The notes beneath the pieces were generated by a model. That model searched no databases and was not told the DNA's origin. It saw nothing but the letters and a program-made list of their open reading frames with translations. A stretch of DNA of 64,000 nucleotides, taken from the NCBI GenBank assembly GCA_025451095.1, contig JANWLB010000013.1, positions 4,244 to 68,243 on the forward strand. The letters are read 5' to 3'. This DNA comes from Alphaproteobacteria bacterium (GTDB taxonomy: Bacteria > Pseudomonadota > Alphaproteobacteria > Micavibrionales > Micavibrionaceae). Numbering within the stretch: the stretch's first letter is position 1; every line of letters starts with the position of its first letter. This document shows, in pieces, positions 2,560 through 57,083 of this stretch. The position numbers and the translations under genes were made by a program.

Positions 2560-3984
2560 ATGACCTCAAAAGCAAAGACAAGCAGCACTTCACAAGCCTC
2601 GCGTATGGAATCGGATTCCCTGGGCGAAATTGGCGTTCCCGCCGATCGCTACTGGGGCGCCCAGACGCAGCGCAGCATCCAGAATTTCAAAATCGGCGGC
2701 GAGCGCATGCCCGCACCGCTTATCCGCGCATTGGGAATCCAGAAAAAAGCGGCAGCTCTGACCAATATCGATCTGGGCATTCTTGATAAAAATATTGGCA
2801 AGGCCATCGTGCAGGCCGCCAATGAAGTTATCGGCGGCGACCTGACGGATGAATTTCCGCTGGTCGTCTGGCAGACCGGTTCGGGCACGCAGACCAACAT
2901 GAACGCCAATGAAGTCATCGCCGGGCGCGCCAACGAAATACTGGAGAACAAACGCGGCGGAAAAAAGCCCGTACACCCCAACGATCACGTGAATATGGGG
3001 CAGTCCTCTAACGATACCTTCCCCACCGTCATGCATATCTCGGCGGCGGAGCAAATACACACGGCTCTTCTGCCTGCCCTGCAAAAGCTTCAGGGCGCGC
3101 TCGACAAAAAGGCAAAAGAATTCGCCCGGATCGTCAAAATCGGCCGCACGCACCTGCAGGATGCGACGCCTGTTACGCTGGGTCAGGAGTTTTCAGGCTA
3201 CGCCCAGCAGATCAAATACGGTATCGAGCGGGTCAAGGCAACCCTGCCGCGCCTGATGGAGCTTGCACAGGGCGGCACGGCCGTCGGCACAGGCATCAAC
3301 TGCAAGGCCGGGTTCGACAAGGCCTTCGCCGCGCAGGTGTCCAAAATCACCGGGCTGGACTTTAAAACCGCACCCAACAAATTCGAGGCGCTGGCCGCCC
3401 ATGACGCGATGGTGGAAGTTTCCGGCGCACTGAATGTTCTGGCCGCCTCGCTGATGAAGATCGCCAACGATGTCCGCCTGCTGGGCTCCGGCCCGCGCTG
3501 CGGAATCGGAGAGATCAACCTGCCCGAAAATGAGCCGGGCTCTTCCATCATGCCCGGCAAGGTCAACCCGACACAGGCCGAGGCCATGACCATGGTCTGC
3601 GCCCAGGTCATGGGCAATCATGTCACGGTCACGATCGCGGGCAGCAACGGCCATTTCGAGCTAAATGTTTTCAAGCCCGTGATCATTTTCAACGTGCTGC
3701 AGTCCCTGCGCCTGCTGGCTGATTCCTGCAACAGCTTTGCGGACAACTGCGTGGCCGGCATCGAAGCCAACGAAGAGCGTATCGAAAAGCTGCTCTATGA
3801 CAGCCTTATGCTCGTGACGGCGCTTAATCCTCATATCGGCTACGACAATGCCGCCAAAATCGCCAAGAAAGCCCACAAGGAGAATAAAACTCTCAAGCAG
3901 GTGGGGCTGGAGCTGGGACTGCTGACTGAAAAGCAGTTCGACGACTGGGTTGACCCGGCGGACATGGTAAAGCCCCGGGATTAG
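2560..3984 (+). CDS. fumC: class II fumarate hydratase
   Basis: Contains [31 protein letters not shown] and the signature [13 protein letters not shown]. The start could instead be Met16 at 2605. Confidence 0.95.
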
Positions 3985-4003
3985 GGCTAAGCCGCCTTCC
4001 TTC

Positions 4004-4213
4004 ATGAAAAAGAGGTCCATTAAAATCGAAGGCCATCCAACCAGCATCACCCTGGAGGAACCTTTCTGGCTGGCCTTAAAGGACATCGCCGACAGCAAAG
4101 GCAAGACGCTCGGCGCGCTTGTCTCAGAAATCGACAAAAGCCGTACAGGCAATCTGTCCAGCGCCCTGCGCGTTTACATTCTGGAAGAGATCAGAGCTGC
4201 CGGAAAAAACTAA
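4004..4213 (+). CDS. ribbon-helix-helix domain protein (RHH_4-like)
   Basis: 69 aa with SIKIEGHPTSITLEEPFWLALKDIA and NLSSALRVYIL. This matches the small RHH proteins commonly found beside fumC in alphaproteobacteria. Confidence 0.65.
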   Translation: MKKRSIKIEGHPTSITLEEPFWLALKDIADSKGKTLGALVSEIDKSRTGNLSSALRVYILEEIRAAGKN

Positions 4214-4222
4214 GCCGCGCCT

Positions 4223-7200
4223 CTACTGGCCCTGCATCACGCCCTCAAGAACGCCCCTGAAAATATCCTCGGGCTTAACTTCCTGAGACGGCGGCGGAGT
4301 CTGTTCCGCCGGAGGTGAAGTCGCAGGGGCCGCAGAAGGCGCGGGAGCCGCAACCGGCGCCGGAGCCGCAGATGGCGCCGGTGTTACAGCCTGTCCGGCA
4401 GGCGCAGGATTTCCAGCGGCCGGTGCTGGCGCCGGAATACCCAGCAAATTCTGGAGCGCATCGTTGCCCTTGAGTTTTTTCTGTAGGATGCCCTGCACCT
4501 TGCTGCCGACTATATTGTCGATATAATTGTTCAGCGCACCGCCGGCGAAAGTCTGACCCGGGCGATCCAGCGGCCCGCGGAACGTCACCTTAAGCGGCGG
4601 CGCATCGGCAGGTTCAGTCAGTTTGATCGTGCTCTCCATATCGATACTCCAGAGCGGCAGATTGATCTTGCCGGGCGAAGTAACCGTAGCGGCCTTCCCT
4701 GTGAGAGTAAGCTCGTCCAGATTGATAACGCCTTCGGTGATCGTGAAGGACGAGGTAAGCTTGTCAAAAGCTGTGGACCCACCCTGCATGGCCGAGCCCA
4801 CAAACCCCGCAAGATTGTCTTTTATATTACCCGAGGGGGGCTGGACCATCGTGCGCGAGAGGCGGGCCAGATCGAATCCCTGAAACACGATATCTGAACC
4901 ATTGGCCTTACCAGCGCCATTCAGGTCAAACACAAGCGCCGCCGGACTTAGACCCGTAGCCGCAATACTCGTATTCATTGAAATAGAGCCGCGCGCCGTG
5001 ACCAGCCGCGCGCCACTGAAGGACTGGACGAAGGACTCCAGAGAGATATCCTTCAGATCGGCGTTTCCCTCCACTGTGAGAGGCTGGCGCGCCGCCGCCG
5101 CCGAAGTGGCCTTGCCCTTCAGCATCGCCTGGCCGCCATACATGCGGCCATCGAGGCGGGAAAGATTGAGAACGCCGTTCTCCAGAGTCACCACCAGCGT
5201 GGCATCATTGATAAGCCAGGGTCCGTAACTGATTGAACGCGCCGTGGCATTCAGATCGAGACTGAACTTGCGCATCCATTCGGTATTGATGGCGTTGCGG
5301 GACCAGCGCACATCCTGCCCCTGCCGGGTAACGCCCTTGGCGCCACCGCCTTCTGCTCCCGCATCATGACCGATGAGATCGTCGAGAGGCACGTCGCCCA
5401 TCTGCAGCTTGCCGCTGATCCCCGGCACGGAAGAACCTTTATCAAACTTCACTTCGCCAGACAGACTTGCAGGACCGAGCGTGCCCTGCAGATTTGAAAG
5501 CGTATAAATATTGCCTTCCTGCTTCACGTTAGCAAAAATATCCATCGATTTGCGGATAGCGACCCCGCTTTTGAATTCAGGACTGAAAAGCCTTATGACA
5601 TCGACATAATTCGGATGCTTTAAGCGCAACGTCAGCGCGCTGACCGTGGGCTGAGCCAAGACACCGGTCAGAACGCCCGACGTGTCCAGTGAGCCATTCA
5701 TAGCTTTTAAATTGGCAGTAAAGGAGAGTTTATCGGAATTGCCCTTGAACTCCGAAAGCATCTCCGCTCCGCCTGCTGCCGCCACCGGCAGGCGGGCGGT
5801 ATCGACATCAAATCCATCCAGAAACTTTCTTAAATCAGACGTCTTGCCCTGCATCGACACGTTGACGTCCTTGAGCTTCTGCCGGTCGCCTACGGAGCCG
5901 GAGGCAAGTATATAATTGCCATTCTTATCCCGCGCCTCAAACGTCTTGATGTCCATCTTGCGTTCAAGCAGCGTGGCCATCACCTTGACGTTGTCATAGT
6001 CGGATTCCTTGAACCTGACGTTCTTCAGTGCCAGCACCAGGTCGAGATTCACGGGCAGGCTGGTCTTTTCCGCCATCTGCCTGATATCCATTTTTTCGGA
6101 TGTCACGCCGGCAGGAAGTTTTTGCGGCGGCGAGAGGCGCCTGATCCACTCATCCGCATCCAGCTTGTCCGCTGTCATAGCCAGCGTGACGTGATCGCGT
6201 CCGCCGGACTTGCCCAGATCATAAGCCGAACCGCCGAGACTGAAGGACGAGCCGCCCAGACTGACATCCGCGCGGTCAGCGCCCAGTCTGGTGGGTTTTA
6301 CGCTGCCGGCGATATCAAGCGAGGTCGGTCCCTGAAGAAGAACGCCCAGCCCTTCCGCGCTCTTTGCCGCCAGGAACGCCTGCACCGTCTTTAGCAGGCC
6401 ACCGGATTTTGCCGTCAGCGTATAGGAAAGCGTGGGGTCGGAGAGCGTCACCGCTCCGGTTGAGGGCGAACGCGAGGCTGCATTATAGGATAAATCGAAT
6501 GTGGAGCTAAAACTTCCTGCACCCGGCAGATCGGCTGCCAGCTTGCCCCGCATCTTCGACCCGGCATGACTGCCCGTCATCTTGACGTTGGATAGCGTAA
6601 TCCCGCTGTACTGCACCGCCGGTGCCGAAAAATCCAGCGCCGCCACAAGTTCGGCCGGAAGCGTCAGAGATTCAGGAAGGAAGACCTTTGCCTTATCGCC
6701 GTCGGCCGGCTTGCGTGCTGGCAGAACGCTGTTCAGATCGACCGGCTTGTCGGCATGAAGCGTGACAGACACATCAAGCGGCCGTCCTTCCTTTGCCGAC
6801 TTTATAACCAGACTGCCGTCCGCCTCACTGCCTGCGAACGACATTTTAAGATTTTTGTAGGCTATTTCATTGGCCGAAGCTGTCAGAATGCCGCGTGCGC
6901 CCGCTTTTTTTCCTTCGAGGGCGGGCACGTCGGAACCCGCCAGCGCAAGAAGGGATTTGAGATCCGCGGTCTTGAATTCCGTCTCTCCCTGAACGCCGGC
7001 ACTGTTCCTGAAGGCAGCAACGCCCGAGAAAGACAGCGTTGAGCCTGAATCCGGCACATCAACATCCATCTGCACAGGTAAAGAGTCGGCATTCCGCTCA
7101 ATCCGGCCGGTTTTACCTGAAAAACGGATCGGCTGGCCGGCATAGGCCAGTTCGCCGTTCAGCGTATAGGGGCCAAAAAGCGTATCACCCCGGACAGACA

Positions 7201-42847: not shown

Positions 42848-44398
<1,551 letters not shown>

Positions 44399-44456
44399 TT
44401 CTTTTCCTCTTGGCTCTGGAAGTCTATTCTAAAAAAAACTAAAAAGTTAAAAATCC

Positions 44457-45080
44457 TCAGGCCGCCTTATCGGCGCCTGCATTCATCATCGCGCGCTGGA
44501 GACGCTCCAGTTTGCGCTTCACGGAATCATCAATCATGCGGGAGCCGACCGTAACGATCATACCTCCCAGAAGATCCCTGTTCACTTCGACGTTCAGCGC
44601 AACGGCTGAACCTGTCGACTTGCTCAGCTGTTCCTGCAGGGCGCGGGTCTGGGCGGGGGTCAGGGCGTGCGCCGTCTGGACACGCGCCTCAACCTGGCCG
44701 CGGCGGCGGCGCAGTTCGTTGCGGAAAGTGTTGATGATGATCTGGGCAGCGTACAGGCGGCCGTTGCGCGCCAGGACGCCGATGAAATTCTTGGTCAGGG
44801 TATGGAACTGCGCCTTGTCGGCCAGGGCGCTCAAAGCTTTCCTTTGTTTTTCACGGGAAACCAGCGGGCTTTCCAGAAGATTTTGAAGGTCCGGGCTGCT
44901 CCCGAGCATGGCCTGCAGTTCGAGCAAATCTTTTTCAACGTTTTCAAGAGCTTTGGCCTGAGCAGCGATATCGATCAGCGCCACCGCATAACGTGTTGCC
45001 ACAAGACCCGATCCTGTTGAACCTGCTGCCACTTTCCGTGTTCCCCGCACTATGGATGACGTCTGGCGTCGGTTTAGCAT
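44457..45080 (-). CDS. atpH: F1 ATP synthase subunit delta (OSCP)
   Basis: VATRYAVALIDIA... and the C-terminal GGMIVTVGSRMIDDSVKRKL are typical delta/OSCP features. The start is taken at Met28 of the tracked ORF and is uncertain. Confidence 0.85.
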   Translation of the reverse strand: MLNRRQTSSIVRGTRKVAAGSTGSGLVATRYAVALIDIAAQAKALENVEKDLLELQAMLGSSPDLQNLLESPLVSREKQRKALSALADKAQFHTLTKNFIGVLARNGRLYAAQIIINTFRNELRRRRGQVEARVQTAHALTPAQTRALQEQLSKSTGSAVALNVEVNRDLLGGMIVTVGSRMIDDSVKRKLERLQRAMMNAGADKAA

Positions 45081-45226
45081 ATGAATAAGGTGGGGCGCAA
45101 GCTGCGATGTCGGTTTTCCAGCTCTTTTTACGATTGTCTGCGCCTTTCCTCTATGCGACATTTTGAAGACCGCTTATCCCCGTACCGATCCGGGATTTAT
45201 GTCCGGAGTGACAGGCCCTTCACCCT

Positions 45227-47083
45227 ATGCCGCAAGACTTTTCTTCCTGCCACCGCTTCGATGACTTTTCCGCCGTTTTCGCCGCCACGCGGACGCAACC
45301 CCGGGGGAAGGCTTTTCTCACCGCCGGGAGCCATATTCTGACCTATGGCCAGGCCGAAGACCTGACGGCGCGCCTGTGCGGGTTCTTCGCCGAAAAAGGC
45401 CTGCGCCGGGGCGACCGGGCCGTAATCTTAAGTCACGACGATATTGCCGCCGTCACCTTGTTCCTCTCCTGTCTGCGCTTCGGCCTGACTGCTGTCATCA
45501 TCAACCCGGAAGCCAGCCAGGAAGAGCAGGAAAATCTCATAAAGGCGGCCAGAGCCCGTGCTTTATTCGCGGACAAGGCGTTTTTAAGCCCGATTTCATC
45601 CTCCGATATGGTTATTTTGCCAATTTCACCCGGATCCGGGCACAAAAAACCAGGCTTTCTGGCAAAAAAAACGGACAGGCAGGTCTTTCCCCAGCAGATT
45701 TACAACTTTGAGCCGGCAAAAGACCTGCCAGTCATTCCGCTGGATACCGTCGCCTATATTCTGTTTACCTCGGGCACGACCTCCCGGCCCAAGGGGGTGG
45801 AGATCACTCACGGCAATCTTCTGGCCCAGATGAAGACCTTCGTCCGGCACTACGGCTATGATGCCCGCTCTTCCCTTCTGAACATTCTGCCCCTGCATCA
45901 CACTGACGGCCTGACCCAGGGGCCGGTCGTGGCTTTTACCGCCGGATGCAACGTTCACAGGCCTTTCAGATTTTCTATGAACAAACTCCAGAATATTATT
46001 GATTCTGTTTATAAATATAAAATCAGCCATTTCATTGCCGTGCCCGCGATGCTTCAGCTTCTCGACGCCCTCGATGCCGGCGCGAATGATGCCTTCAAAA
46101 CCCCTGATTTCAAATTCGTGATCTCGACAGCCGGCTTTCTCGATCCTCATTTATGGGAGCGGTTTGAAGCGCGATTTGGCGTGATGGTGGTCAATGTCTA
46201 CGGCCTGACTGAAACGGTATGCGAAGCCCTCTATTGCGGTCCCACCCCGGAAACAAGGCGGCCGGGCTCGATCGGCAAGCCGGTTGATACGGAATGCCGG
46301 ATCGTCGGGGAAGACGGCCGGGATCTGCCCGATGGCCAGACCGGGGAGCTGTGGCTCAAAGGCCCCCACATCATGAAGGGTTATTTTGAAATGCCGCAGG
46401 AAACCGCCGAGGTCTTAAGCCCGGACGGCTGGCTCAGGACCGGCGATCTTTGCCGCCGCGATGCTGACGGCTTCTATTACATAGCCGGGCGTAAAAAGAA
46501 CGTCATTATCGTCGGCGGCATGAATATCTATCCCGAAGACGTCGCCAGCGTCCTGCGCCGCCTGCCCGGCATTCTGGACGCCGCCGTCTGGGGCGAAACG
46601 GACCCGACCTGGGGAGAAACCGTCACTGCCGCCGTCATGCCGCAAAAAGGCGTACTCCTTGATCCCGACAAGCTGGGCGCGGCCTTCCTTGAACACGCCG
46701 CGCTCCAGATGCTGCCCCGGCAGATTCACGTGGTTGACGAACTCCCGCGCGGGCCCGCCGGCAAGGTCATCATCCGGGATTTGCGTGAAAAAATTGCAGC
46801 GAAAAGCACAACGCCCGTCAGGGCCAGCGCCACGACGCACGACGATCTGCCGTCCCGGATTATCGCCACAGCGGCCCGCTCTTTCAAATGCCCGCCGGAC
46901 GTATTGAGCCTTGAATCGACGGCAGAGACGACAAAAGGCTGGAACTCTCTCGCCCATATCGAATTCCTGCTTGCTCTTGAAAAGGAGTTCGCCATAAAAA
47001 TCGAACCCCGTGATATACTGAGTGTGCGCTCCCTGGGCGATGCCCTGCGTCTCATTCAGGGTAAAACGAAAAAAGCTGCGTGA
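45227..47083 (+). CDS. adenylate-forming enzyme fused to a C-terminal carrier-protein domain (DltA-DltC-like fusion)
   Basis: Adenylation cores are FTSGTTSRPKG, YGLTET, GRKKNVIIVGGMNIYPEDV and PRGPAGKV. The last 80 aa or so form an ACP-like domain with GWNSLAHIEF, which has Ser in the DSL position. Confidence 0.85.
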   Translation: MPQDFSSCHRFDDFSAVFAATRTQPRGKAFLTAGSHILTYGQAEDLTARLCGFFAEKGLRRGDRAVILSHDDIAAVTLFLSCLRFGLTAVIINPEASQEEQENLIKAARARALFADKAFLSPISSSDMVILPISPGSGHKKPGFLAKKTDRQVFPQQIYNFEPAKDLPVIPLDTVAYILFTSGTTSRPKGVEITHGNLLAQMKTFVRHYGYDARSSLLNILPLHHTDGLTQGPVVAFTAGCNVHRPFRFSMNKLQNIIDSVYKYKISHFIAVPAMLQLLDALDAGANDAFKTPDFKFVISTAGFLDPHLWERFEARFGVMVVNVYGLTETVCEALYCGPTPETRRPGSIGKPVDTECRIVGEDGRDLPDGQTGELWLKGPHIMKGYFEMPQETAEVLSPDGWLRTGDLCRRDADGFYYIAGRKKNVIIVGGMNIYPEDVASVLRRLPGILDAAVWGETDPTWGETVTAAVMPQKGVLLDPDKLGAAFLEHAALQMLPRQIHVVDELPRGPAGKVIIRDLREKIAAKSTTPVRASATTHDDLPSRIIATAARSFKCPPDVLSLESTAETTKGWNSLAHIEFLLALEKEFAIKIEPRDILSVRSLGDALRLIQGKTKKAA

Positions 47084-47095
47084 ACGATTTTCAAC

Positions 47096-48157
47096 ATGAG
47101 CCAGTTTAAAAAAGCCTTTCAGCTTCATAAGCCTCTGCTGATCTTCGGATGGCTTTATGGCGCGCTGATTGCCGTACTGGGGCTTTATATGGGCGCCACG
47201 GCGGACGATTTCGTCGGGATCATGCGCTATTTCATACCCGCCTCCATGACGTCCTTCTTCTTTCCCGTCATCATGCTGCCGTTCTGCCTGTTTTTCGCCA
47301 TCAAAAGCGAAAAGCCGGGCGAGAGATGGCTGCGGCGCGTGATCAACAAATTCGAAGGCAGCCTGGAGAACTATGTACGGAACGGCGGCCTTCATAACGG
47401 GCTGATGACGATGCTGGCCCTGTTTCCCGTGGTCTCTTTCTTCTGCATCGGCAAATCCATGGTGCCCAGCCTGAACACCTATCACATCGATCCCCTGCTC
47501 GCCCGTATCGACCAATTTATTCATTTTGGCCACTATCCACACGAACTCCTGATGCCCTGGATAGAAAAGAACGGACTGGCTCAGGCTGCCGACAACTTAT
47601 ACATCGGCTGGTTTGTCGTCATGTATATAATGACTGAATACTGTACATGGGCGGATACTGACGGGCGCAGGCGTATGCGGCTTCTCTGGACCTACGCCCT
47701 GAGCTGGATCATTATCGGCAACCTCATGGCCATATCCATGGCTTCCGTAGGTCCTATTTACTTCCACCTGTTCTATACCGATATCGCCTCGCCCTATGCT
47801 GATCTCATGCAACATCTTGAGATTCAGAACAAGCTCCAGCCCCTCAAGCTCTACAGCACCGCAGGCGACCTGCTCGGCATGGTAAAAGATGACAAGGTCA
47901 TCAACGTCAACGCCATTTCCGCCATGCCCAGCATGCATGTCGTGATGGCATTTCTGATCTTCCTCTATACACGCTCCATTAATAAATACATCGCCGCACT
48001 CGCCCTGGTTTATTTCTTTCTGATCCTGGGGGCATCGGTTTATCTCGGCTGGCACTACGCAATCGACGGTTATGTGGGAGTCCTGGCCGTCTGGTTCATA
48101 TGGCGCTTCTGCGGCTGGCTGACCACATGGATTGAAGAAAGACAGGCTGCCGGCTGA
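47096..48157 (+). CDS. polytopic PAP2_3-like membrane protein (Aur1/IPC-synthase or sphingomyelin-synthase-like phosphotransferase)
   Basis: Multiple TM helices. AMPSMHV (SxH) and GWHYAIDG (HYxxD) match the C2/C3 motifs of the PAP2_3 / lipid phosphotransferase branch. No KxxxxxxRP motif was seen. Confidence 0.55.
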   Translation: MSQFKKAFQLHKPLLIFGWLYGALIAVLGLYMGATADDFVGIMRYFIPASMTSFFFPVIMLPFCLFFAIKSEKPGERWLRRVINKFEGSLENYVRNGGLHNGLMTMLALFPVVSFFCIGKSMVPSLNTYHIDPLLARIDQFIHFGHYPHELLMPWIEKNGLAQAADNLYIGWFVVMYIMTEYCTWADTDGRRRMRLLWTYALSWIIIGNLMAISMASVGPIYFHLFYTDIASPYADLMQHLEIQNKLQPLKLYSTAGDLLGMVKDDKVINVNAISAMPSMHVVMAFLIFLYTRSINKYIAALALVYFFLILGASVYLGWHYAIDGYVGVLAVWFIWRFCGWLTTWIEERQAAG

Positions 48158-49326
48158 TGTTCGTCCTGACCGGCTTCTGGTTATGCACCCTCGCCGGCGT
48201 CACGCTCATACACTGGATTTTGCCCGAAAGATGGCGGGGCTGGTGGCTGGCACTGGCCTCGGCCGCTTTTTTAGGCTGGCTTTCACCCCTGTCGCTCGCT
48301 TTTTTGTCCGGCCTGACTCTGGCCATCTATTTTCTGACGGCGAAGGCTGAACGTATTTCAGGGCGCAAACTTCTGATCCTCATCGCGCTGGCTGGCGGCC
48401 TTCTGGCACTCTGCAAGACGCATATGGCCCTGATCCAGCCGGTAGCCGATCTTGGCGCGGCAGGCAACGGTGATATTCTCATTCCTCTGGGCCTGTCCTA
48501 CTACACCCTGCGCTGCCTTCATTACGGCATAGAAAAATGCAAAGGCACGATTCCGGCACATCCCTTCCGGGATTTTATTTTTTATATCTTCTATCTGCCG
48601 ACATTCATGACCGGTCCGATCCACCGTTTTCCCGCCTTTGAAAAAGATATGCGGCGCAAGCGCTGGGACCCGTTTGTGTTCGCCCGCGGCCTTGAACGAA
48701 TTCTGTTCGGCTACGTTAAAATATGTTTTTGCGCCAATCTCCTCGCAACAGGCGTTTTTGGACAGCTCATCGAAACTCATGCCGTCGCCGGCGGCAGTCT
48801 CGAGGCCTGGCTGCTGATGATACAAAACGGGATAACGCTTTATTTCCAGTTCGCGGGCGCCTCCGATATCGCGATCGGCTTTGGTCTTCTTCTTGGATTC
48901 AATGTCATGGAAAATTTCAATTTTCCTTTCCTGGCGCGCAATATTTCTGATTTCTGGACCCGCTGGCATATATCACTGACCAGCTGGTGCCGCGACTATG
49001 TTTACATGGGCACGGCAGCGGTGACGCGCAATACCATGCTCGCGGCCCTGGCCTCGATGCTGGCCATGGGGCTCTGGCATGAAGTATCGTGGCGCTATCT
49101 GATCTGGGGCCTTTATCAGGGCGCCGGCATCCTGATCTGGCAGAAATTCCAGACCCTGAAGCCGCATTTGCCGCGCTCTGAAAACAAATATGTGCACAGC
49201 GCCGCAAGAGCCGGCTCGACAATTCTCACGCTTCTGTACGTCATGCTGGCGATGTACTTCGTGCGCTTCAGCAGCCTTGAAGAGTCTTTTTCACAGGCCG
49301 CTAAAATCGTTCTGCCCTGGCGCTGA
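48157..49326 (+). CDS. MBOAT-family O-acyltransferase, DltB-sized
   Basis: GLSYYTL, PTFMTGPIHRF, FAGASDIAIG, NFNFPFLARNISDFWTRWHISLTSWCRDYVY and GLWHE (catalytic His). 389 aa, which is DltB-like rather than AlgI-like in length. Confidence 0.9.
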   Translation: MFVLTGFWLCTLAGVTLIHWILPERWRGWWLALASAAFLGWLSPLSLAFLSGLTLAIYFLTAKAERISGRKLLILIALAGGLLALCKTHMALIQPVADLGAAGNGDILIPLGLSYYTLRCLHYGIEKCKGTIPAHPFRDFIFYIFYLPTFMTGPIHRFPAFEKDMRRKRWDPFVFARGLERILFGYVKICFCANLLATGVFGQLIETHAVAGGSLEAWLLMIQNGITLYFQFAGASDIAIGFGLLLGFNVMENFNFPFLARNISDFWTRWHISLTSWCRDYVYMGTAAVTRNTMLAALASMLAMGLWHEVSWRYLIWGLYQGAGILIWQKFQTLKPHLPRSENKYVHSAARAGSTILTLLYVMLAMYFVRFSSLEESFSQAAKIVLPWR

Positions 49327-49394
49327 ATTGACAGGAAAGACGAAAGCCTATATCCGGTTAGGAATAATAATAATAATAAAACTGGACAGGAAAA

Positions 49395-50354
49395 ATGTTT
49401 CACTCGCTGGCAAAAAGCGCGGCCCGCCTGGGCGTTGCCGAAGCCCTTATCTTCAGTCTGGCAGGAACCGGTTGCCTGCCGGCGCTTAAGACCACGCCCG
49501 CCGCCGACTGCAGCCGCTACGTCCGCGCGCGCGCGGAGGCTGCTTCCGTCCCCGCCCCGAAAAACGCGCGTGACTTTTTGTCCGCCAATGTTCAGGGTCT
49601 GCCTTTCGGGCTCGACAACCTCAGTCGCAAGACGCCTTATCCGCCCAACAGGTTTGAATGTCTGGGCGAGATCGCCTCCGCCTATGACATAGCTGTGTTT
49701 CAGGAAGACTGGCAGGATAATCAGAAACTCACCGGAAATCATCCCTATCGCCTGTCCGCCAAGCCTTCTGACTCTCTCTTTCGCGCCGGATCGGGCCTTA
49801 CCCTGCTTTCACGGGAGCCTTTCACGGAGGTGCGGGATATCCCATTTAAAAACTGCAGCGGGGGCCATGAAATTGTCCTTTATGCCTGGGCAAAAGCTGT
49901 CGGCTTCCCTGCAAAATGGACAGAGAGATTTAATACCAAGGCGGATTGCTTTGCCACGAAGGGCTTTCGCCTGACGCGAACCGGCAACCTTATGCTGGTC
50001 AACAGCCATCTCGATGCCGGCAACACTTCAAGGGATTCGCGGGCACGCGCCAGCCAGCTTGAGCAGATCACGGAAAAATTGCCTAAATCCATTCCGCTTC
50101 TGATTGCCTTCGATGCCAATCTCAAGAGCAACATCCCCCGGGACGAAGACTCGCTGGCCCGATTTCTGCGTGAAAACGATCTGAAAATTGCCCTGCGCAA
50201 TAAAACCGATCTCATTCTCTATCGCGGCCTGACCGTCAAGAACGTGCATACGGTCGATCTGACCGATCTTAGCGATCATAACGGCCTGGCGCTGACCTTT
50301 ATGCTTCCGCAATCCACAGCGCCACCCACACCCCAGGTCAGGCCGGCACCCTAA
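49395..50354 (+). CDS. endonuclease/exonuclease/phosphatase (EEP) family protein, neutral-sphingomyelinase-like; probable lipoprotein or secreted
   Basis: Signal-like N-terminus with ..SLAGTGC. EEP blocks are DIAVFQEDW, LVNSHLDAG, IAFDANL and the terminal DLSDHNG. Confidence 0.7.
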   Translation: MFHSLAKSAARLGVAEALIFSLAGTGCLPALKTTPAADCSRYVRARAEAASVPAPKNARDFLSANVQGLPFGLDNLSRKTPYPPNRFECLGEIASAYDIAVFQEDWQDNQKLTGNHPYRLSAKPSDSLFRAGSGLTLLSREPFTEVRDIPFKNCSGGHEIVLYAWAKAVGFPAKWTERFNTKADCFATKGFRLTRTGNLMLVNSHLDAGNTSRDSRARASQLEQITEKLPKSIPLLIAFDANLKSNIPRDEDSLARFLRENDLKIALRNKTDLILYRGLTVKNVHTVDLTDLSDHNGLALTFMLPQSTAPPTPQVRPAP

Positions 50355-50401
50355 AAAAACGCCTTATAAGACAGAGCCGGCGTGATATACTGGATGCCGC
50401 C

Positions 50402-50545
50402 ATGAAACTATACAGCTTCCTTCGGCAAAGATTCTCTCCCGGCGACGCCGCCATACTGACCGGCGCCTGGTATGCCCTGCTTTTGTTCCTCGTATTTCTC
50501 GGACTCTCCCAGCAAGGGGTGGATTTGCGCTATGCCCACTTCTGA
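50402..50545 (+). CDS. 47-aa single-TM micro-protein, DltX-like (MKLYSFLRQRFSPGDAAILTGAWYALLLFLVFLGLSQQGVDLRYAHF)
   Basis: Hand translation; the ORF is below the track's size cutoff. One TM helix followed by a C-terminal aromatic hexapeptide LRYAHF, with Tyr at -4 and Phe at -1. Overlaps the sulfotransferase start by 14 nt. The SD is weak. Confidence 0.4.
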   Translation: MKLYSFLRQRFSPGDAAILTGAWYALLLFLVFLGLSQQGVDLRYAHF

Positions 50546-51437
50546 AACGCAAGGGATCATTATTCTGGGCGTGCCCCGGTCAGGCACAACCCTGCTGCGC
50601 CGCCTGCTTGACGCCCATCCCGCGCTCTGCTGCCCCGGTGAGACTTTTTTGTTCCGCGGCTGCGCCCGCTTTCTCGAACATGATGTCATTTCCTCAGGAT
50701 TCGATTACGGCGTGCTGGGCGCCCTGGAAGGTCTGGGCTATCAGCGCGGCGACGTCACGGCCCGCCTGCGCCGCTTCGTAACACAGTTTTACGAAGAACT
50801 GGCGCAAAAAGCCGGAAAACCACGGTGGGCCGCGAAAACCGCGGTCGACAGTTTTTACCTGCCGCAGATCGAGGAGCTTTTCACCGGCCATGCCCGCTTT
50901 ATCTGCCTGACCCGCCACGGGCTTGATGTAGTTTGCAGCATGGATGAGTTCTCCCGCGATCTGCAGACCTATATAAGCGAGATTCACGACTATACAAAAC
51001 GCTATCCCCGCCCCTTTGAGGCCTTCGCCCATGCCTGGGCCGATGTGACCGGCGCGCTTCTTGATTTTGCGCAGCGCCATAAAAGCGACTGTCATCAGCT
51101 GCGCTACGAAGACCTGGTGAAGAACCCCGATTCTGAGCTTAAGAAAATCACAGACTTTCTTAAACTGCCCGCCCTGCCAAAGGCTGCGGACATACTGGCA
51201 AACAAAACGCTTGATGGCATTGGTGACTGGAAATCATACAAGAAAACGAAAATGGAAACCGCCGCCGTCGGACGCTGGAGCCAGCAACTGCCCGACGCCA
51301 CCATCGAAGCACTGGCCCCCATCGTTAATCCCGCATTGGTCCGTGCGGGCTATGAAGCTGTGTCGGCCGGCAGCGCCGAGGATCAGAAACGCCGGCAGGA
51401 ACTGGCCCGCATGATGATGCAGGCCCGCGACGCCTAG
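50532..51437 (+). CDS. sulfotransferase-family protein
   Basis: From Met21 of the tracked ORF: IIILGVPRSGTTLLRRLL (5'-PSB PAPS-binding loop) and RYEDLV (3'-PB region). Confidence 0.8.
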   Translation: MPTSETQGIIILGVPRSGTTLLRRLLDAHPALCCPGETFLFRGCARFLEHDVISSGFDYGVLGALEGLGYQRGDVTARLRRFVTQFYEELAQKAGKPRWAAKTAVDSFYLPQIEELFTGHARFICLTRHGLDVVCSMDEFSRDLQTYISEIHDYTKRYPRPFEAFAHAWADVTGALLDFAQRHKSDCHQLRYEDLVKNPDSELKKITDFLKLPALPKAADILANKTLDGIGDWKSYKKTKMETAAVGRWSQQLPDATIEALAPIVNPALVRAGYEAVSAGSAEDQKRRQELARMMMQARDA

Positions 51438-52372
51438 CGCGGCAACCAGTCGTCCGTGATCTTTTTATTGAGCCACGACGTGAAAACCTTGCGCCCTGTA
51501 GCGTTTAAATGCACGTCATCGCAAAACTGGGTGGATTCATCCGGCGCCTGATATGAGTCCCACTTTAAATCGCTGTAGAGTCCCGGCAGAAGCTGTTCCG
51601 GCGTGGGATAAAAACCCAGCCCGTGAAAATCAACAAGATCGAGCGGGATGGCGTAGCGCGCCATAAGATCCGTATAGGGCCTGAGATTGAGCACCACAAC
51701 CCTGATACCCGCCGCCCGCGCCTGCCGCAGGAAATTCTGTGCCATCACATAGCCCTGATTTTCTTTTATCAGGCTGTGATGGTCCTTTTTCATGAAAGAA
51801 ATGCGCTGCGCCATATAGGCTTTATCAAAACGCGCTTCGCATTGAATCAAAAGCGTATGCCGGTCCGCGCTCCATTCGCGTCTTTCGTCGTAACGGGTCA
51901 ATATCTTGCGAAAATAATCCACGACAATTCCGGAGATTTTAACCAGCTTTGGGCTGGCTCCCGGCGCATTTGAAATAACACTATTCTGGATAACGATCAG
52001 GTCGGGATGGGCGCGCAATATATAGGGCGTCAGCGCATCATACAGATCGAACCGCCCTGCATTATAGGCGAACTGCAGAACAGCCATGCGGCGGCCATCG
52101 GGCAGGCGAATAATGCTGTCAGGGTCAACGCCTTCAGTCGTCGCATGGCGCAGGCGTGAATTTCCCAGCAGAATGACGCCAATGTCTGATTTTTCTTTCG
52201 CTTTCTCAAACTTACTTATGATTTCTGCATTGAAGTCGTTGGCGATATAGCGGCTCATATTCCTTTCGCCTGCCATGAAAAAACTGACAGCGATCATGTC
52301 GGCCGCCAGAATCAGCGCCCACAAAAAGGACCAGAAATACTTTTTTTCGTATTTTAAAAGAGGTTCAGCCAT
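51434..52372 (-). CDS. membrane-anchored SGNH/DltD-like esterase-acyltransferase
   Basis: N-terminal TM (FWSFLWALILAADMIAVSFF), block I-like LLGNSR, and block V-like DDVHLNATG. The start is taken at Met19 (MAEPLL). The family call is tentative. Confidence 0.5.
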   Translation of the reverse strand: MAEPLLKYEKKYFWSFLWALILAADMIAVSFFMAGERNMSRYIANDFNAEIISKFEKAKEKSDIGVILLGNSRLRHATTEGVDPDSIIRLPDGRRMAVLQFAYNAGRFDLYDALTPYILRAHPDLIVIQNSVISNAPGASPKLVKISGIVVDYFRKILTRYDERREWSADRHTLLIQCEARFDKAYMAQRISFMKKDHHSLIKENQGYVMAQNFLRQARAAGIRVVVLNLRPYTDLMARYAIPLDLVDFHGLGFYPTPEQLLPGLYSDLKWDSYQAPDESTQFCDDVHLNATGRKVFTSWLNKKITDDWLPR

Positions 52373-52382
52373 AAAGCCCGAC

Positions 52383-53186
52383 CTAAACTCCCGTCGGCGA
52401 AAGCAGCTTCCAGTCCATAAAAACAAAGCGCTCCGGCTCCAGCATCACGCCCATAAGCTTGAGAAGCAACAGATGAAGCACATAAATTTCGAGCGTGCGG
52501 CGGCCCATGATTTTGAGCAGGCCGGTCAGCGGAAAGGGCAAAGCCTTCGTCAGTCGCGGGAACGTCAGGGGCCTGAAGAAGTACAGAGCCGTCATGACAG
52601 CCGTGATGCCAAGAGCCAGCACCCTGAACTGCGGCGCTGAAAAGCCAAAAAAAAGTTCCTGAAGGGCGACAAAGCTTATAAGCGCAAAGGCAAGATATTG
52701 CTGTGGCAGTCCGCCGGGAACGCGCGCGTCGTCCTTGTTACGCATCACCCAGCCGTAAATGGCCATTATGAGAGCATGCGTCCCGTACTCGACGGCAAGA
52801 CTTGTAGGGATGGCCAGTATAAAAAGAAAGGCTATCCCGGCCCAGAAGTCGCGCCTGCTTTTAAGGGCGTGTTTCAGGAAAGGATCGAGCGCCATCCTTA
52901 CAAACAGCATCGTCGCCATAATATTGGCCGGCAGGATACTCATCCCGGCCGGCACGTTGGCCGCCAGAAGAATCGAGCAGCCGATCCAGAGCCTTTTGCC
53001 CGTATCCCGGCTTCGCGCGTAACCGATCAGAAAAAACCAGATCGGCACGCACAGGCGCCCGGCAACACGCCACCAGTTGTCATCAGGATAAAAATAATAG
53101 CCGACATGATCCACGATCATCAACATCACGGCCAGGGCCTTGAGAAGATCGTACGACGTCAGATCGCGGGGGAGCGTTTTTGTCAT
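52383..53186 (-). CDS. TraX-family membrane (acyl)transferase, copy 1
   Basis: SYDLLKALAVMLMIVDHVG matches the TraX N-terminal motif (compare F-plasmid TraX ..DIIKTVALVLMVLDHAN). Polytopic. Confidence 0.7.
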   Translation of the reverse strand: MTKTLPRDLTSYDLLKALAVMLMIVDHVGYYFYPDDNWWRVAGRLCVPIWFFLIGYARSRDTGKRLWIGCSILLAANVPAGMSILPANIMATMLFVRMALDPFLKHALKSRRDFWAGIAFLFILAIPTSLAVEYGTHALIMAIYGWVMRNKDDARVPGGLPQQYLAFALISFVALQELFFGFSAPQFRVLALGITAVMTALYFFRPLTFPRLTKALPFPLTGLLKIMGRRTLEIYVLHLLLLKLMGVMLEPERFVFMDWKLLSPTGV

Positions 53187-53190
53187 GGCG

Positions 53191-53967
53191 CTATCCGTAA
53201 GCCTGTCTGTAGGCGGCAAACGCCATAAAAAGAATGAAGTGAACGACATAAACCGCCAGCGTGTAGCGGCCCATGAAACGCACCAGAGGCGCCAGCGTCC
53301 AGGAAAGCGCCCGGGTCAGGCCGGGAAAGACCATAGGCCTGAAACTGTAAAGACTGACCAGGACGGTAGCGCTGCCAAGAAAAGTCGCCATGGATTGAAA
53401 AACGGAAAACTGGAACAGCACCGATTGTATCAGCGTAAATACCAGCACACAGAAAATCGTATAAGGGAAGATCAGCGTTATTCGTTTGCGCGGATCGTCG
53501 GAAAAATGGCGGACGATATAGCCAAAAACCGCCAGAATGAGCCCCAGCGTTCCGTATTCGGTCAGAAGATTGGTCGGCACCGCCAGAATGGCAAGAAGCA
53601 GCGCCGCAGCCCAGAAAATCAGCGGGTGTTTGAGCACCCAGCGCATGTAGGTGTCCAGAACCATACGAATGAACAGGATGTTGAACAGGATCGTCAGCGA
53701 CCAGATCCTGTGCTGGATCAGATAACGGGCCGCAGCCACGAGCGTCCCCGCCGCCCAGATATGAATCCCGATATCGCGACTGCGCGCATAGCCGATCAGG
53801 AAGAACCACATCGGCACGCAATACCGGCCGACAACACGAAACCACAATTCCTGCGGGTAAAAGAACGCACCCACGTGATCGACGATCATCAGAATGACGG
53901 CCAGCGTCTTGAGAAGGTCGTAACTGGTCAGGGTCTGTGATGGCGGGGCAACCGTCTGGGTCATCAC
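53191..53967 (-). CDS. TraX-family membrane (acyl)transferase, copy 2
   Basis: SYDLLKTLAVILMIVDHVG...VPMWFFLIGYARSRD is nearly identical to the N-terminal third of copy 1. Stops 4 nt before the copy 1 start. Confidence 0.7.
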   Translation of the reverse strand: MMTQTVAPPSQTLTSYDLLKTLAVILMIVDHVGAFFYPQELWFRVVGRYCVPMWFFLIGYARSRDIGIHIWAAGTLVAAARYLIQHRIWSLTILFNILFIRMVLDTYMRWVLKHPLIFWAAALLLAILAVPTNLLTEYGTLGLILAVFGYIVRHFSDDPRKRITLIFPYTIFCVLVFTLIQSVLFQFSVFQSMATFLGSATVLVSLYSFRPMVFPGLTRALSWTLAPLVRFMGRYTLAVYVVHFILFMAFAAYRQAYG

Positions 53968-54047
53968 GGAATCATAACCTAATCCTATGACTGTGAATTC
54001 CCGATTTTTATTGACATATTAAGGACGGCTTACTTAGGATACGGCCC

Positions 54048-54800
54048 ATGCTTTATTCCTTGCGCGCCCGATGGGCTTTTGCCCGGACACAACCGCATCC
54101 CGCCGACCCCTGCGTGCGACTGACGGATAATCCGGGCGATCTGGTCGCCATCCATCACCCCAACGTCCGGGCCGTCATCTGGCAGAGACCTTTGAACGAG
54201 GACATCAGAAACGATTTGAGAAATATCGATCACAGCAATTTTCTTATAAGAACCCGACTGGATGTGCCTGATGTTTTCCTTGCGCCCGGATTTCGACGGA
54301 TCACGACTGATCACTTAAGTCCCCAATCTCGCCCGCCACCCAGTATAGAAAAAGACGTCATCCTGTTGGCCGACGTCTTTCGCAGAGCCCATGGACTGCC
54401 TTTTCACCACCACAAAAATAGCCTGGGCCTGCAGACACGTCCTTTGAAGGATCCAAACGCGCCCGACTTTGTATTTTTAAGCTTTGTCATTCCTCACTTT
54501 GATGGATTCCACACCAGAATGGTTACCAACTATTCTCTGGATGAAGAGATGGGCACCATATGGTTTCCGGGCGATTACACCTATGAACAGGTGGAAAATC
54601 TCAAAACGAAACTCCGAAGCAACGAAGAAAAGTTACTGGAAAATATTCAAATCGCGATGAAAGAACACAATGCCCAACACATCACGCCGGGAGATGTTCT
54701 CTTCCTGAAAGGCCATTTGCATAGAAGCCGGAAATGGCTTCTGCACTGTCCGCCACCCCTGAAACCGGATGTCGTCCGCCTGACTCGTCTTTATCCCTGA
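54048..54800 (+). CDS. hypothetical protein (A/T-rich gene; possibly DUF1826-like, unverified)
   Basis: 250-aa ORF with AGGA 8 nt upstream of the ATG. By eye the second half is markedly A/T-richer than priA next door. Confidence 0.45.
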   Translation: MLYSLRARWAFARTQPHPADPCVRLTDNPGDLVAIHHPNVRAVIWQRPLNEDIRNDLRNIDHSNFLIRTRLDVPDVFLAPGFRRITTDHLSPQSRPPPSIEKDVILLADVFRRAHGLPFHHHKNSLGLQTRPLKDPNAPDFVFLSFVIPHFDGFHTRMVTNYSLDEEMGTIWFPGDYTYEQVENLKTKLRSNEEKLLENIQIAMKEHNAQHITPGDVLFLKGHLHRSRKWLLHCPPPLKPDVVRLTRLYP

Positions 54801-54803
54801 CTC

Positions 54804-57083
54804 CTAAAGAAAACTTTGCGGATCGATATCGACGGAGATACGCACTGTCGAGGGCACTTTCAACTGCGCCAACCAGCCTTCAATCGATTTCTGAAGATTG
54901 ACGTTCTTGTCCGCGCGCACCAGAAGGCGGCGGCGGTAATTCCCGCGCAGCCGGTAGAAAGGTGCCTCCGCCGGGCCGAGCGTCTGGATTCCCTGCCCCT
55001 GCGGCGCGCATTTTCCGGCTTCGATCGCCATATCCATGACCTGTTGTTCATCCTTGCCGAAAACAATGATCCCGGCCAGTCGGCTGTAGGGTGGCATATG
55101 CGATGTCTCGCGCTCATGCGCCTCAATCTCGAGGAAACGGTCGCGGTCATGGGCGGCCAGCGCCTGCATAACCTTGTTGCCCGGCAACCACGTCTGAAGA
55201 TACACGCGGCCCGGCAGGGCTTCACGCCCGGCGCGCCCCGCCACCTGATGCAGAAGCTGGAACGTGCGCTCTGCCGCGCGCAGATCGCCGCCCTGCAGTC
55301 CCAGATCGGCATCAACCACGCCGACCAGGGTGAGATCCGGAAAGTGATGTCCCTTGGCGATGATCTGTGTGCCGATAATAATGTCGTATTGATGCTCCCG
55401 GATATCGCTCAGGATTTTTGAGAGCTCCTCATGCGTGCCCGCTGTGTCACTGGCCAGGACAATCGTGCGGGCCTGCGGAAAATATTCTTTTACCTCTTCC
55501 AGTATGCGCTCCACGCCAGGCCCGCAGGCGCTTAGCGAGTCTTCCTCGCCGCAGGAGCTGCATTTTTTCGGCAGGCTCGCCATATAGCCGCAATGATGGC
55601 ATTGCAGGCGGCCGGTCCGCCGGTGCTCGACCAGCCACGCGGTGCAGCGCGGGCATTCCATGCGATGACCGCAGGTCCGGCACAGAGTCAAAGGCGCATA
55701 GCCGCGCCGGTTTAAAAACAGCAGGCTTTGCTCTCCCGCCTCCAGATTGGCCTGCAGCGCCGCCTTCAGCGAGGGCGCGATGAAATGCTGCCGGTCCGGT
55801 TTATCCTTCTTCATGTCGATCATGTGCATGTCGGGCAGCTTTGCCCCGCCATGCCGGTCGGGCAGATGAAGATGCGCGTAGCGCCCGGTCCAGACATTGA
55901 CCATCGTTTCCAGCGACGGCGTGGCCGAAACCAGAATCACGGGGATTTTTGACAGATGCGCCCGCACAATCGCCATGTCGCGCGCATGATAGATGACTCC
56001 GTCTTCCTGCTTGTAGGCGGGGTCGTGCTCCTCATCGAGGACGATCGCGCCCAGATCGGCATAGGGCAGGAACAGGGCCGACCGCGCCCCGACCACAACT
56101 TTTGTATGCCCCTCCGCCACGCCGCGCCACGTGTTGCGCCGCCGGGCGGGCGACAACGAAGAATGCCAGAGCGCAGGGGCGCAACCGAAACGCTGCCGGA
56201 AACGGTCAAGAAAGGCATTTGAGAGGGCAATTTCCGGCAGCAGGATGAGAGCCTGCTTCCCCTGACGCAGCGCCTCCGCGACCGCCTCGAAATAAACTTC
56301 CGTCTTGCCAGCGCCGGTCACGCCGTCCAGCAGCGCCGCATAATATCCGCCAGCCGTAACGTGCTGGCGCAGCTGGGCGGCCACGCCTTCCTGCGTCGGC
56401 GACAGAGTGACGCCTGTCTTGCCGGGATCGGGATGGCGGCAGGGCGCGGGTGTATGGATAGCCACCGGCACCAGAAGATTCAGCCCCGCCAGACCCTTGA
56501 CCACTGCGGGCGTACAAGCAGCGGCTTCGGCGATTTCAGAGGCGCGGCGCGGCTGACCATCCTTTAGAACCTCAAGGATGCGGCGGCGGGCCGGGGAAAG
56601 ATTTTTCAGGAGTCGCCGGCCGTCATCCTCCGCCCGCAAAGCCTCGCGGGCCGTTTCCGACAGGACATAGCCGGTCGCCGGATCGGGCGGCGCGAGGGCT
56701 GCGAACACGGGCAGCGCCATTTTCAGAACCGCACCAGCCGATGCCATATTATATTGAGCCACCCAATCCAGAAAACGGCGATTCACCTCCGGCATGGGGG
56801 GCAGATCGTGACGGGCCAAGACGGACTTAAGCTTGAGTTTACGCTTTGCTGCCGTGACCTCCGGGGATGCCGCTTCCGCCGCCTTGTCCCAGACAACCCC
56901 CGGCACCTCGCGGCTGCCGAGAGGCACGGTCACATAGTCGCCCGGCTGCAGCGACAGCCCTTCGGGCACGGCATAGCTGTAGGCCTTGTCCACAGGATAC
57001 GGCACCAGAACCGTTGCCTGGACCGCGTCCGCACCGGCCTGCGGCGCGGGCGCCTCTTCTGCTCCTTGAAAAAGTGTCCGCAT
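54804..57083 (-). CDS. priA: primosomal replication protein N' (PriA helicase)
   Basis: [11 protein letters not shown] (Walker A), LDEEHD, and the Cys-rich zinc module [21 protein letters not shown]...CHHCG. Confidence 0.95.

Follow-up and report, generated by a model that had tools for sequence, protein, structure and literature searches.

A membrane microprotein of 47 residues with an invariant C-terminal tyrosine as a candidate acyl shuttle in an alphaproteobacterial MBOAT cluster

An open reading frame (ORF) of 47 codons, located in a 64 000-nt stretch of DNA from a member of the Micavibrionaceae (Alphaproteobacteria; assembly GCA_025451095.1, contig JANWLB010000013.1, positions 4244 to 68 243 of the forward strand; the whole stretch is referred to as the window), is a genuine gene under purifying selection. 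Its product, MKLYSFLRQRFSPGDAAILTGAWYALLLFLVFLGLSQQGVDLRYAHF, encoded at 50402–50545 on the forward strand according to the window ORF translation, is best explained, with a probability that we put at roughly 0.8, as a single-pass inner-membrane microprotein that would act as the detachable acyl-shuttle arm of a carrier-dependent acyl-transfer machine formed by an MBOAT and an SGNH enzyme. This reading is drawn by analogy with DltX and its partners DltB and DltD. Tyr44 in the tail of the microprotein was the only residue found to be invariant across its family, and a DltB-like MBOAT, an adenylation-carrier fusion and an SGNH-like protein are encoded close by.

The microprotein gene and its conservation

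The micro-ORF lies in the 177-nt gap between the stop of an endonuclease/exonuclease/phosphatase (EEP) gene (50354) and the start of a sulfotransferase gene (50532), where an original prediction, made by inspection of the window, had placed an ATG..TGA frame of 47 codons at the same coordinates. The architecture that it described was seen in the 47-aa peptide: a basic N-terminus (K2, R8 and R10), one hydrophobic run of ~21 residues assigned by a hydrophobic-window script to a transmembrane (TM) helix at ~16–36, and an 11-residue tail, QQGVDLRYAHF, with Tyr44 at the fourth position from the C-terminus and Phe as the last residue. By the positive-inside rule, the N-terminus would be cytoplasmic and the C-terminus periplasmic. 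The Shine-Dalgarno sequence is weak, as had been remarked, consisting of GGA ~10 nt upstream, and the 14-nt overlap reported with the next gene matches the sequence, with the sulfotransferase ATG (50532–50534) embedded in the Tyr44-Ala45 codons TAT GCC (50531–50536). The sulfotransferase start is backed by the N-termini of its homologues. An identical 14-nt overlap is found in the window and in four related loci (L001, L003, L004 and L010; related loci are referred to by number), and there is no such overlap where the Tyr codon is TAC or the genes are spaced apart (L008, L009).

In the window, three of the 740 mechanical ORFs of 25–100 aa end in [hydrophobic]-x-Y-x-x-[hydrophobic], against 0.9 expected, and the combination of this C-terminal motif with a TM-like segment occurs once in the 740, in the micro-ORF. 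By itself, this rarity is weak evidence for a gene. The decisive evidence that the micro-ORF is one came from its conservation across genomes and from purifying selection. Close homologues form 14 clusters of 46–47 aa; a word-indexed search of 5.8 billion proteins gave three further clusters at first and thirteen later. When 1.84 billion representatives were searched exhaustively with a HMMER profile, 42 matched at E<1e-3, nearly all of 44–49 aa. The tails of the further close clusters all read DLRYAN followed by a final L, I, M or V, the only one without the final residue being the 46-aa P0010, and those of more distant members include FRYGNL, FRYLNL, FRYVNL and LRYLNY. In a family alignment of 50 sequences, Tyr44 was the sole invariant column, Arg43 and Tyr4 were at least 90% conserved, and R8 and the TM segment were conserved too. 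Among seven orthologues, synonymous differences were near saturation (pS 0.6–0.9), nonsynonymous ones stayed low (pN 0.11–0.28), and dN/dS was 0.09–0.22 where it could be computed. The codons for D-L-R-Y-A-N vary synonymously (GAT/GAC, TTG/CTG/CTT/TTA, CGC/CGG/CGT, TAT/TAC, GCC/GCT/GCA/GCG and AAT/AAC).

A conserved small ORF with synonymous-biased substitutions in relatives, proposed in the original prediction as a check, was thus found, and the judgement expressed there that the arrangement was unlikely to be a coincidence is borne out by conservation and purifying selection across genomes. Its expectation that a terminal YxxF would be conserved in orthologous clusters held for the Tyr at the fourth position from the end and for a hydrophobic last residue, but not for the Phe, the last residue being mostly L, I, M or V. 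A search with the degenerate DNA pattern SQxGxDLRYANx* gave no match, although members exist in JGI data, so that the collection or the handling of the pattern was limiting.

Two explanations that would deny the peptide a function of its own were weighed against these data. The frame might have arisen by chance, with its conservation due to an overlapping DNA or RNA element or to an antisense ORF; the ORF is short, its Shine-Dalgarno sequence is weak, mechanical antisense ORFs are present at 50364–50552 and 50408–50689, and a conserved 10-mer stands just upstream. This is hardly credible, given that divergence is biased to third codon positions, that frame +1 is the only frame open in 17 of 17 copies, that Rfam gave no match in the window and that the amino-acid sequence is kept, in homologues of 46–49 aa, in genomes of 27–65% GC. 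Both the chance-ORF and the antisense-ORF readings were rejected on this frame-specific conservation. Alternatively, the micro-ORF could be a leader or upstream ORF whose translation, rather than its product, couples or regulates the overlapping sulfotransferase gene, as might be suggested by the position of the sulfotransferase ATG inside the Tyr-Ala codons in the window and the four loci that share the 14-nt overlap, by the weak Shine-Dalgarno sequence and by the fact that a sulfotransferase always follows this subtype of micro-ORF. We regard this as very improbable. The peptide sequence is under strong purifying selection, the architecture and the Tyr are kept in loci with no sulfotransferase following (L005, L007, L009a, L011, L012, L014, L015 and L095–L097), and copies without the overlap still conserve the tail (L008, L009b). 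Since the tail is kept with or without an overlapping sulfotransferase gene (L005, L007, L008 and L009), the overlap does not explain its conservation. Translational coupling of the two genes may nevertheless coexist with a role of the microprotein as an acyl shuttle.

The 10-mer GTGATATACT, similar to an extended -10 element, stops 10 nt short of the micro-ORF ATG. It occurs twice in the window on the forward strand (50382–50391 and 47010–47019) against 0.11 copies expected, the second copy standing 77 nt before the start of a PAP2_3 gene. In relatives, [GA]TGATATAnT is kept 10–13 nt before the micro-ORF ATG in L001 (~5023–5036), L003c (L003 ~4019–4030) and L004 (~664–674) despite differing upstream genes. 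It may be an extended -10 (TGnTATAAT), in which case the transcript would be almost leaderless, or the binding site of a regulator. A scan for sigma-70 promoters and terminators returned nothing above background inside the cluster.

The tyrosine motif, fused to or split from the MBOAT

The acyl-tyrosine shuttle mechanism was established between 2023 and 2025 for DltX/DltB/DltD and for PatA/PatB. The role of DltX as an acyl shuttle in the D-alanylation of teichoic acids by DltA/B/C/D reportedly goes back to Schultz, Snow and Walker in 2023. DltX, a protein of ~48 aa with one TM helix, ends in the 'acyl shuttle' motif FxYxxF (PMC12148441, PMC5541007, PMC13653941), the Tyr of which takes D-Ala from DltB and hands it on to the catalytic Ser of DltD (PMC12148441). 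The original prediction had described DltX in these terms (size, TM helix, FxYxxF and Tyr relay from DltB to DltD), in agreement with those sources. The DltX tail reads FIYNEF in Bacillus thuringiensis, where the conserved Tyr is residue 45 of 48 (PMC5541007), FLYFGF in Streptococcus thermophilus (PMC11035591) and FIYNEF in Lactobacillus plantarum (PMC13653941). The window microprotein and DltX are alike in length (~47–48 aa), in their basic N-terminus, in the single TM helix and in the short tail outside the cytoplasm, as well as in an invariant Tyr at the fourth position from the end within a hydrophobic-x-Y-x-x-hydrophobic hexapeptide that ends the protein. They also share their setting: a short DltB-type MBOAT without a fused motif, a carrier-based acyl donor and a TM-anchored SGNH/DltD-like enzyme.

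In PatA and other MBOATs, the motif (FIYANF in PatA) is carried on two extra C-terminal helices, and the MBOAT auto-acylates that Tyr (PMC12148441). PatA, AlgI and other fused-motif MBOATs bear the same kind of Tyr hexapeptide as the microprotein, PatA FIYANF sharing Y-A-N with the RYAN[L] of the family, and the proposed route resembles peptidoglycan O-acetylation by PatA/PatB in the logic of its relay, from MBOAT to Tyr to SGNH enzyme (PMC12148441). PatA and AlgI differ in that their motif sits on the two extra TM helices of the MBOAT and their donor is an acyl-CoA, whereas the window cluster encodes the motif in a protein of its own, with one helix, and its predicted donor is a carrier thioester.

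GTDB species genomes and JGI metagenomes were scanned with an MBOAT alignment, and 160 MBOAT loci among the matches listed were surveyed, a sample in which close relatives are under-sampled and to which the counts below refer. The MBOAT ends in a fused F[IL]YF[QR]F-type motif in 140 of the 160 (~88%). The remaining 20 are unfused, six of them cut by a contig end, which leaves 14 evaluable; in 12 of these 14, a TM micro-ORF with a hydrophobic-x-Y-x-x-hydrophobic end is encoded separately, no more than 3 kb away, and L020 and L123 lack one. The background of the survey was ~6 spurious candidates in 72 fused loci. Every listed MBOAT at least 40% identical to that of the window and with its 3' end on the contig (L015 from Nitrosomonas, L016 from Nitrospina, L095, L096 and L097) is directly followed by a micro-ORF, and these micro-ORFs share M-x-x-Y-x-x-L...W-Y...x-Y-x-x-hydrophobic. 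At the MBOAT loci among the matches listed, the shuttle motif is therefore either fused or split and almost never absent, and the window locus belongs to the split class, as does DltB/DltX.

The survey bears on a further possibility, that the microprotein is a structural or regulatory subunit, for instance a TM helix that serves to stabilise or gate the MBOAT or keeps the SGNH enzyme tethered, with the acyl group passing directly and no acyl-Tyr being formed. Such a role would suit the conservation of the TM segment and of the N-terminal Y4 and R8, and the departure of the motif from a strict FxYxxF. It is nonetheless unlikely: the sole invariant residue of the family is a tail Tyr outside the membrane and not a residue of the TM segment, the Tyr tail is fused to the ~88% of related MBOATs counted above and becomes a separate ORF almost only when unfused, and the Tyr is the acyl carrier in both cases that have been studied experimentally (PMC12148441).

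Split micro-ORFs unrelated in sequence to that of the window adjoin short unfused MBOATs in Verrucomicrobia, Melainabacteria and metagenomes (L087 8048–8221, L092 8192–8326, L160 2532–2705, L089 5485–5625, L106 1686–1853 and L132 3732–3929), and their tails read PFIYVAF, PFIYVSF, TFIYVAF, QFIYAGF or RFIYTDF. The three that were tested (L087, L089 and L092) gave no match to Pfam DltX. Apparently, split shuttles have arisen, or have diverged, on several occasions. In L173, an MBOAT of a normally fused type (5001–6026) has its last segment, ending NPFIYFRF, in a separate 89-aa ORF (6089–6358) 63 nt downstream; a frameshift, faulty assembly or recent fission of the gene may be the cause, and the case might illustrate how a split shuttle originates.

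Partner genes and the putative acyl-transfer route

The features of the cluster are listed in Table 1.

Table 1. Positions of the micro-ORF, its upstream motif and the surrounding genes in the window
Feature	Position	Strand	Remarks
Adenylating enzyme (ANL superfamily) fused to a phosphopantetheine carrier	45227–47083	+	Pfam AMP-binding (5e-70), AMP-binding_C, PP-binding
PAP2_3 family membrane protein	47096–48157	+	Variable accessory gene
DltB-like MBOAT, 389 aa	48157–49326	+	Pfam MBOAT (3e-21)
EEP-family protein	49395–50354	+	Pfam Exo_endo_phos (7e-07)
GTGATATACT, extended -10-like 10-mer	50382–50391	+	Ends 10 nt before the micro-ORF ATG
Micro-ORF, single-pass membrane microprotein gene	50402–50545	+	47 codons; ATG 50402, TGA 50543–50545
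Sulfotransferase gene	50532–51437	+	Pfam Sulfotransfer_3 (2e-29); downstream neighbour of this micro-ORF subtype
Membrane-anchored SGNH/DltD-like protein, 312 aa as called	51434–52372	-	Mechanical ORF to 52426 (330 aa)
TraX/acyltransferase-3-like membrane protein	52383–53249	-	Pfam TraX (1e-13), Acyl_transf_3 (9e-13)

The original prediction had named three partners. The DltB-like MBOAT said to lie about 1 kb away was confirmed; its stop is ~1.08 kb upstream of the micro-ORF, its best PDB matches are DltB (6bug and 8jem, 1e-32), and it matched TIGR04091 (DltB) at 1e-50, which is below the curated equivalog cutoff. Its His308 (WHE) aligns with the catalytic His of DltB, His271 (RWHISL) is likewise invariant in nine relatives, and its C-terminus (...KIVLPWR) carries no fused Tyr motif. 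In plasmids, tblastn turned up no matches other than MBOATs at no more than 34% identity. The adenylation-carrier fusion also proved to be as described, with AMP-binding and PP-binding domains in one protein, the carrier domain of which retains GWNSL, its serine motif. In NCBIfam and the PDB, the adenylation domain is closest to fatty-acid, malonyl and oxalate CoA ligases, and DltA was absent from its top 25 NCBIfam and top 60 PDB matches. Because the adenylation domain is thus acyl-CoA-ligase-like and not DltA-like, the acyl group is probably not D-alanine; a Dlt pathway has a DltA-type enzyme and a free-standing DltC, and here the carrier is fused. By its predicted domains, the cluster is probably not a D-alanylation system and would handle a different acyl group.

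For the SGNH protein, the third partner, the fold assignment was upheld by conserved residues and structure prediction but not by Pfam, no Pfam or PDB sequence match being obtained. It belongs to a family of only 15 clusters in the database of 5.8 billion proteins, for which there is no Pfam or NCBIfam model, and a GTDB scan with the protein found nothing. G70-N71-S72 and D285-x-x-H288 are invariant in 15 homologues. The AlphaFold2 model (pLDDT 82) has an N-terminal TM helix and an alpha/beta domain, and its top Foldseek matches included DltD (6o93, 3bma, 6pfx and 7dxm) and SGNH sialate O-acetylesterases, with probabilities of 0.8–1.0. Model and residues together give moderate support to the view that this minus-strand protein of 312 aa is a DltD-analogous SGNH transferase. 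Block I is G-N-S, not G-D-S, in most members of the family, one paralogue in L010 having G-D-S.

Topology, acyl-Tyr chemistry and order of transfer are modelled here on DltX/DltB/DltD and PatA/PatB. The ANL enzyme would activate a carboxylic acid and load it as a thioester on its own phosphopantetheinyl carrier domain. The MBOAT, via His308, would then pass the acyl group through its membrane tunnel to the phenolic oxygen of Tyr44 in the periplasmic tail of the microprotein. The acylated tail might swing into the active site of the SGNH/DltD-like enzyme and acylate Ser72, from which the acyl group would be handed to an acceptor in the envelope.

Co-occurrence of the micro-ORF with these partners was observed in related loci. 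It directly follows a short MBOAT in 16 of them (L001, L002, L005–L007, L009–L016, L095, L096 and L097), at spacings from a 141-nt overlap, measured with the longest mechanical ORF, to 24 nt downstream; in L001, L002, L005, L006, L007 and L009–L014 it begins -4 to +24 nt after the MBOAT stop, often with a 4-nt ATGA overlap. Wherever the contig includes the upstream flank, the MBOAT is preceded by an AMP-binding/PP-binding fusion (L001, L002, L005, L007, L010, L012, L013 and L014), and an SGNH-like gene is nearby in L001, L002, L005, L009, L010 and L012. The distance of ~1 kb between MBOAT and micro-ORF in the window is due to the EEP gene between them, an insertion found in the window only and absent from L001, L002, L005, L007, L009 and L010. 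The EEP protein has an N-terminus like that of a signal peptide or lipoprotein (…LAGTGC). The PAP2_3 gene, which L001 and L002 share with the window, is missing from L005, L007 and L010, and a TraX-like gene is also near the micro-ORF in L001, L008 and L010. Taken together, the genes for the sulfotransferase and for the TraX-like, PAP2 and EEP proteins hint at a glycolipid or polysaccharide that may carry several decorations.

Both in the window (~42848–57083) and in L010, the cluster is flanked by priA on one side and by the ATP synthase operon, at its atpH end, on the other, and it adjoins atpH in L001, L002 and L005, the contigs of which do not include priA. This place beside atpH would seem to be an insertion site that an alphaproteobacterial lineage has conserved. 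The AtpA protein is nearest to that of Paracoccus denitrificans, and one homologue bears the label Alphaproteobacteria, which makes an alphaproteobacterial host the most likely. The AT-rich L010 has an extra gene for a spermine-synthase-like membrane protein between the TraX-like gene and priA.

Some loci contain more than one micro-ORF. L003, on a contig of 5.3 kb, has three micro-ORFs on the plus strand (164–304, 2946–3089 and 4041–4184), interleaved with at least two SGNH-like genes on the minus strand (862–1803 and 3040–4014), and L009 has two micro-ORFs on the plus strand (1365–1508 and 2558–2701). This hints that micro-ORF and SGNH units were duplicated together, the correspondence not being strict.

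Relation to DltX and wider occurrence

A number of observations weigh against an acyl-shuttle role. The window peptide and its close relatives have Leu in place of Phe at motif position 1, members of the family usually end in L, I, M or V and not in Phe, and the paralogue L003a ends ...LRYAN, with the final hydrophobic residue absent. Pfam PF12459 (DltX) gave no match for the window peptide even at E<=10, only one of the 50 family members reached it, at E=0.023 and far below the gathering score, and hhalign of the family profile against a single B. thuringiensis DltX sequence gave E=0.19. The Foldseek matches of the SGNH-like protein have E-values of 2.5e-3 to 5e-2 and TM-scores of ~0.35–0.40, and the assignment leans on these together with the conserved residues. 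Copy numbers are not always matched, L010 having one micro-ORF and two SGNH genes, and this subtype of micro-ORF is tied to the sulfotransferase gene at least as tightly as to the MBOAT.

The term 'DltX-like' used in the original prediction accordingly holds for the architecture, the motif and the genomic partners, but not for membership of the sequence family: as a positive control, B. thuringiensis DltX matched PF12459 at 2e-21 (75.7 bits). No Pfam or NCBIfam match at all was obtained for the window peptide at E<=10, and a profile search of the PDB with the micro-ORF family returned spurious TM matches only, no DltX chain apparently having been deposited. The DltX tail is F-[IL]-Y-x-x-F; that of the window, L-R-Y-A-H-F, does not conform to a strict F-x-Y-x-x-F and is atypical of its own family, whose consensus tail is [L/F]-R-Y-x-N-hydrophobic, with tails reading [L/F]RYxN[LIVMFY]: close relatives have DLRYAN[LIMV] (L-R-Y-A-N-[LIMV] over the hexapeptide) and distant members FRYxN[LI]. 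Most members have hydrophobic residues at motif positions 1 and 6; exceptions at position 6 are P0010, P0044 and P0054. Other differences concern the setting. The DltX gene lies upstream of dltA, whereas the micro-ORF lies downstream of the MBOAT gene; DltA and DltC are separate proteins, whereas here an acyl-CoA-ligase-like adenylating enzyme is fused to the carrier; the host is an alphaproteobacterium without teichoic acids; and micro-ORF paralogues occur within one locus. The dlt-like operons of Dickeya and Pectobacterium (dltXABCD, PMC5541007) likewise have a Gram-negative host but differ in their DltA/DltC-type activation of D-alanine. Because profile, strict motif, gene order and activating enzyme differ while architecture, Tyr and partners match, we file the micro-ORF product as a putative functional analogue of DltX in a separate, unannotated family and not as a member of DltX, leaving its ancestry aside.

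For this family, we propose the consensus M-x-x-Y-x-F-L-R-R-x-L-P...W-Y-x-x-L...[L/F]-R-Y-x-N-hydrophobic. Members were found in Alphaproteobacteria, Nitrosomonas, Nitrospina and many metagenomes. Tentatively, and at slightly less than even odds, they may represent split acyl-shuttle microproteins of a hitherto unrecognised family that is widespread in Gram-negative and environmental bacteria and serves carrier-dependent periplasmic acylation with groups other than D-alanine; microproteins and SGNH transferases would have been duplicated in step, with up to three microprotein copies in a locus, such that one MBOAT could feed several acceptor-specific transferases via dedicated shuttles. The class of mechanism is already known; what is new is a separate microprotein family without a database model, its occurrence in Gram-negative bacteria with a non-DltA activating enzyme, and the expansion of paralogues within a locus. 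Non-Dlt MBOAT pathways have been stated to lack a DltX-like microprotein (PMC12148441), and the DltX-dependent mechanism has been described as a Gram-positive feature (PMC13653941). If true, a split-shuttle family would contradict the former view, that only Dlt has a separate microprotein (PMC12148441), although a mention in the 2023 primary study is possible.

For annotation, a practical rule would follow: where a bacterial MBOAT is without a C-terminal hydrophobic-x-Y-x-x-hydrophobic tail, a nearby micro-ORF bearing one is to be expected. The micro-ORF itself shows how readily a small gene with a function can be overlooked or labelled no more than 'hypothetical'. Loci with several paralogues would offer a natural system for studying how shuttle peptides pair with SGNH transferases, and the cluster as a whole points to an uncharacterised modification of the envelope in Gram-negative bacteria.

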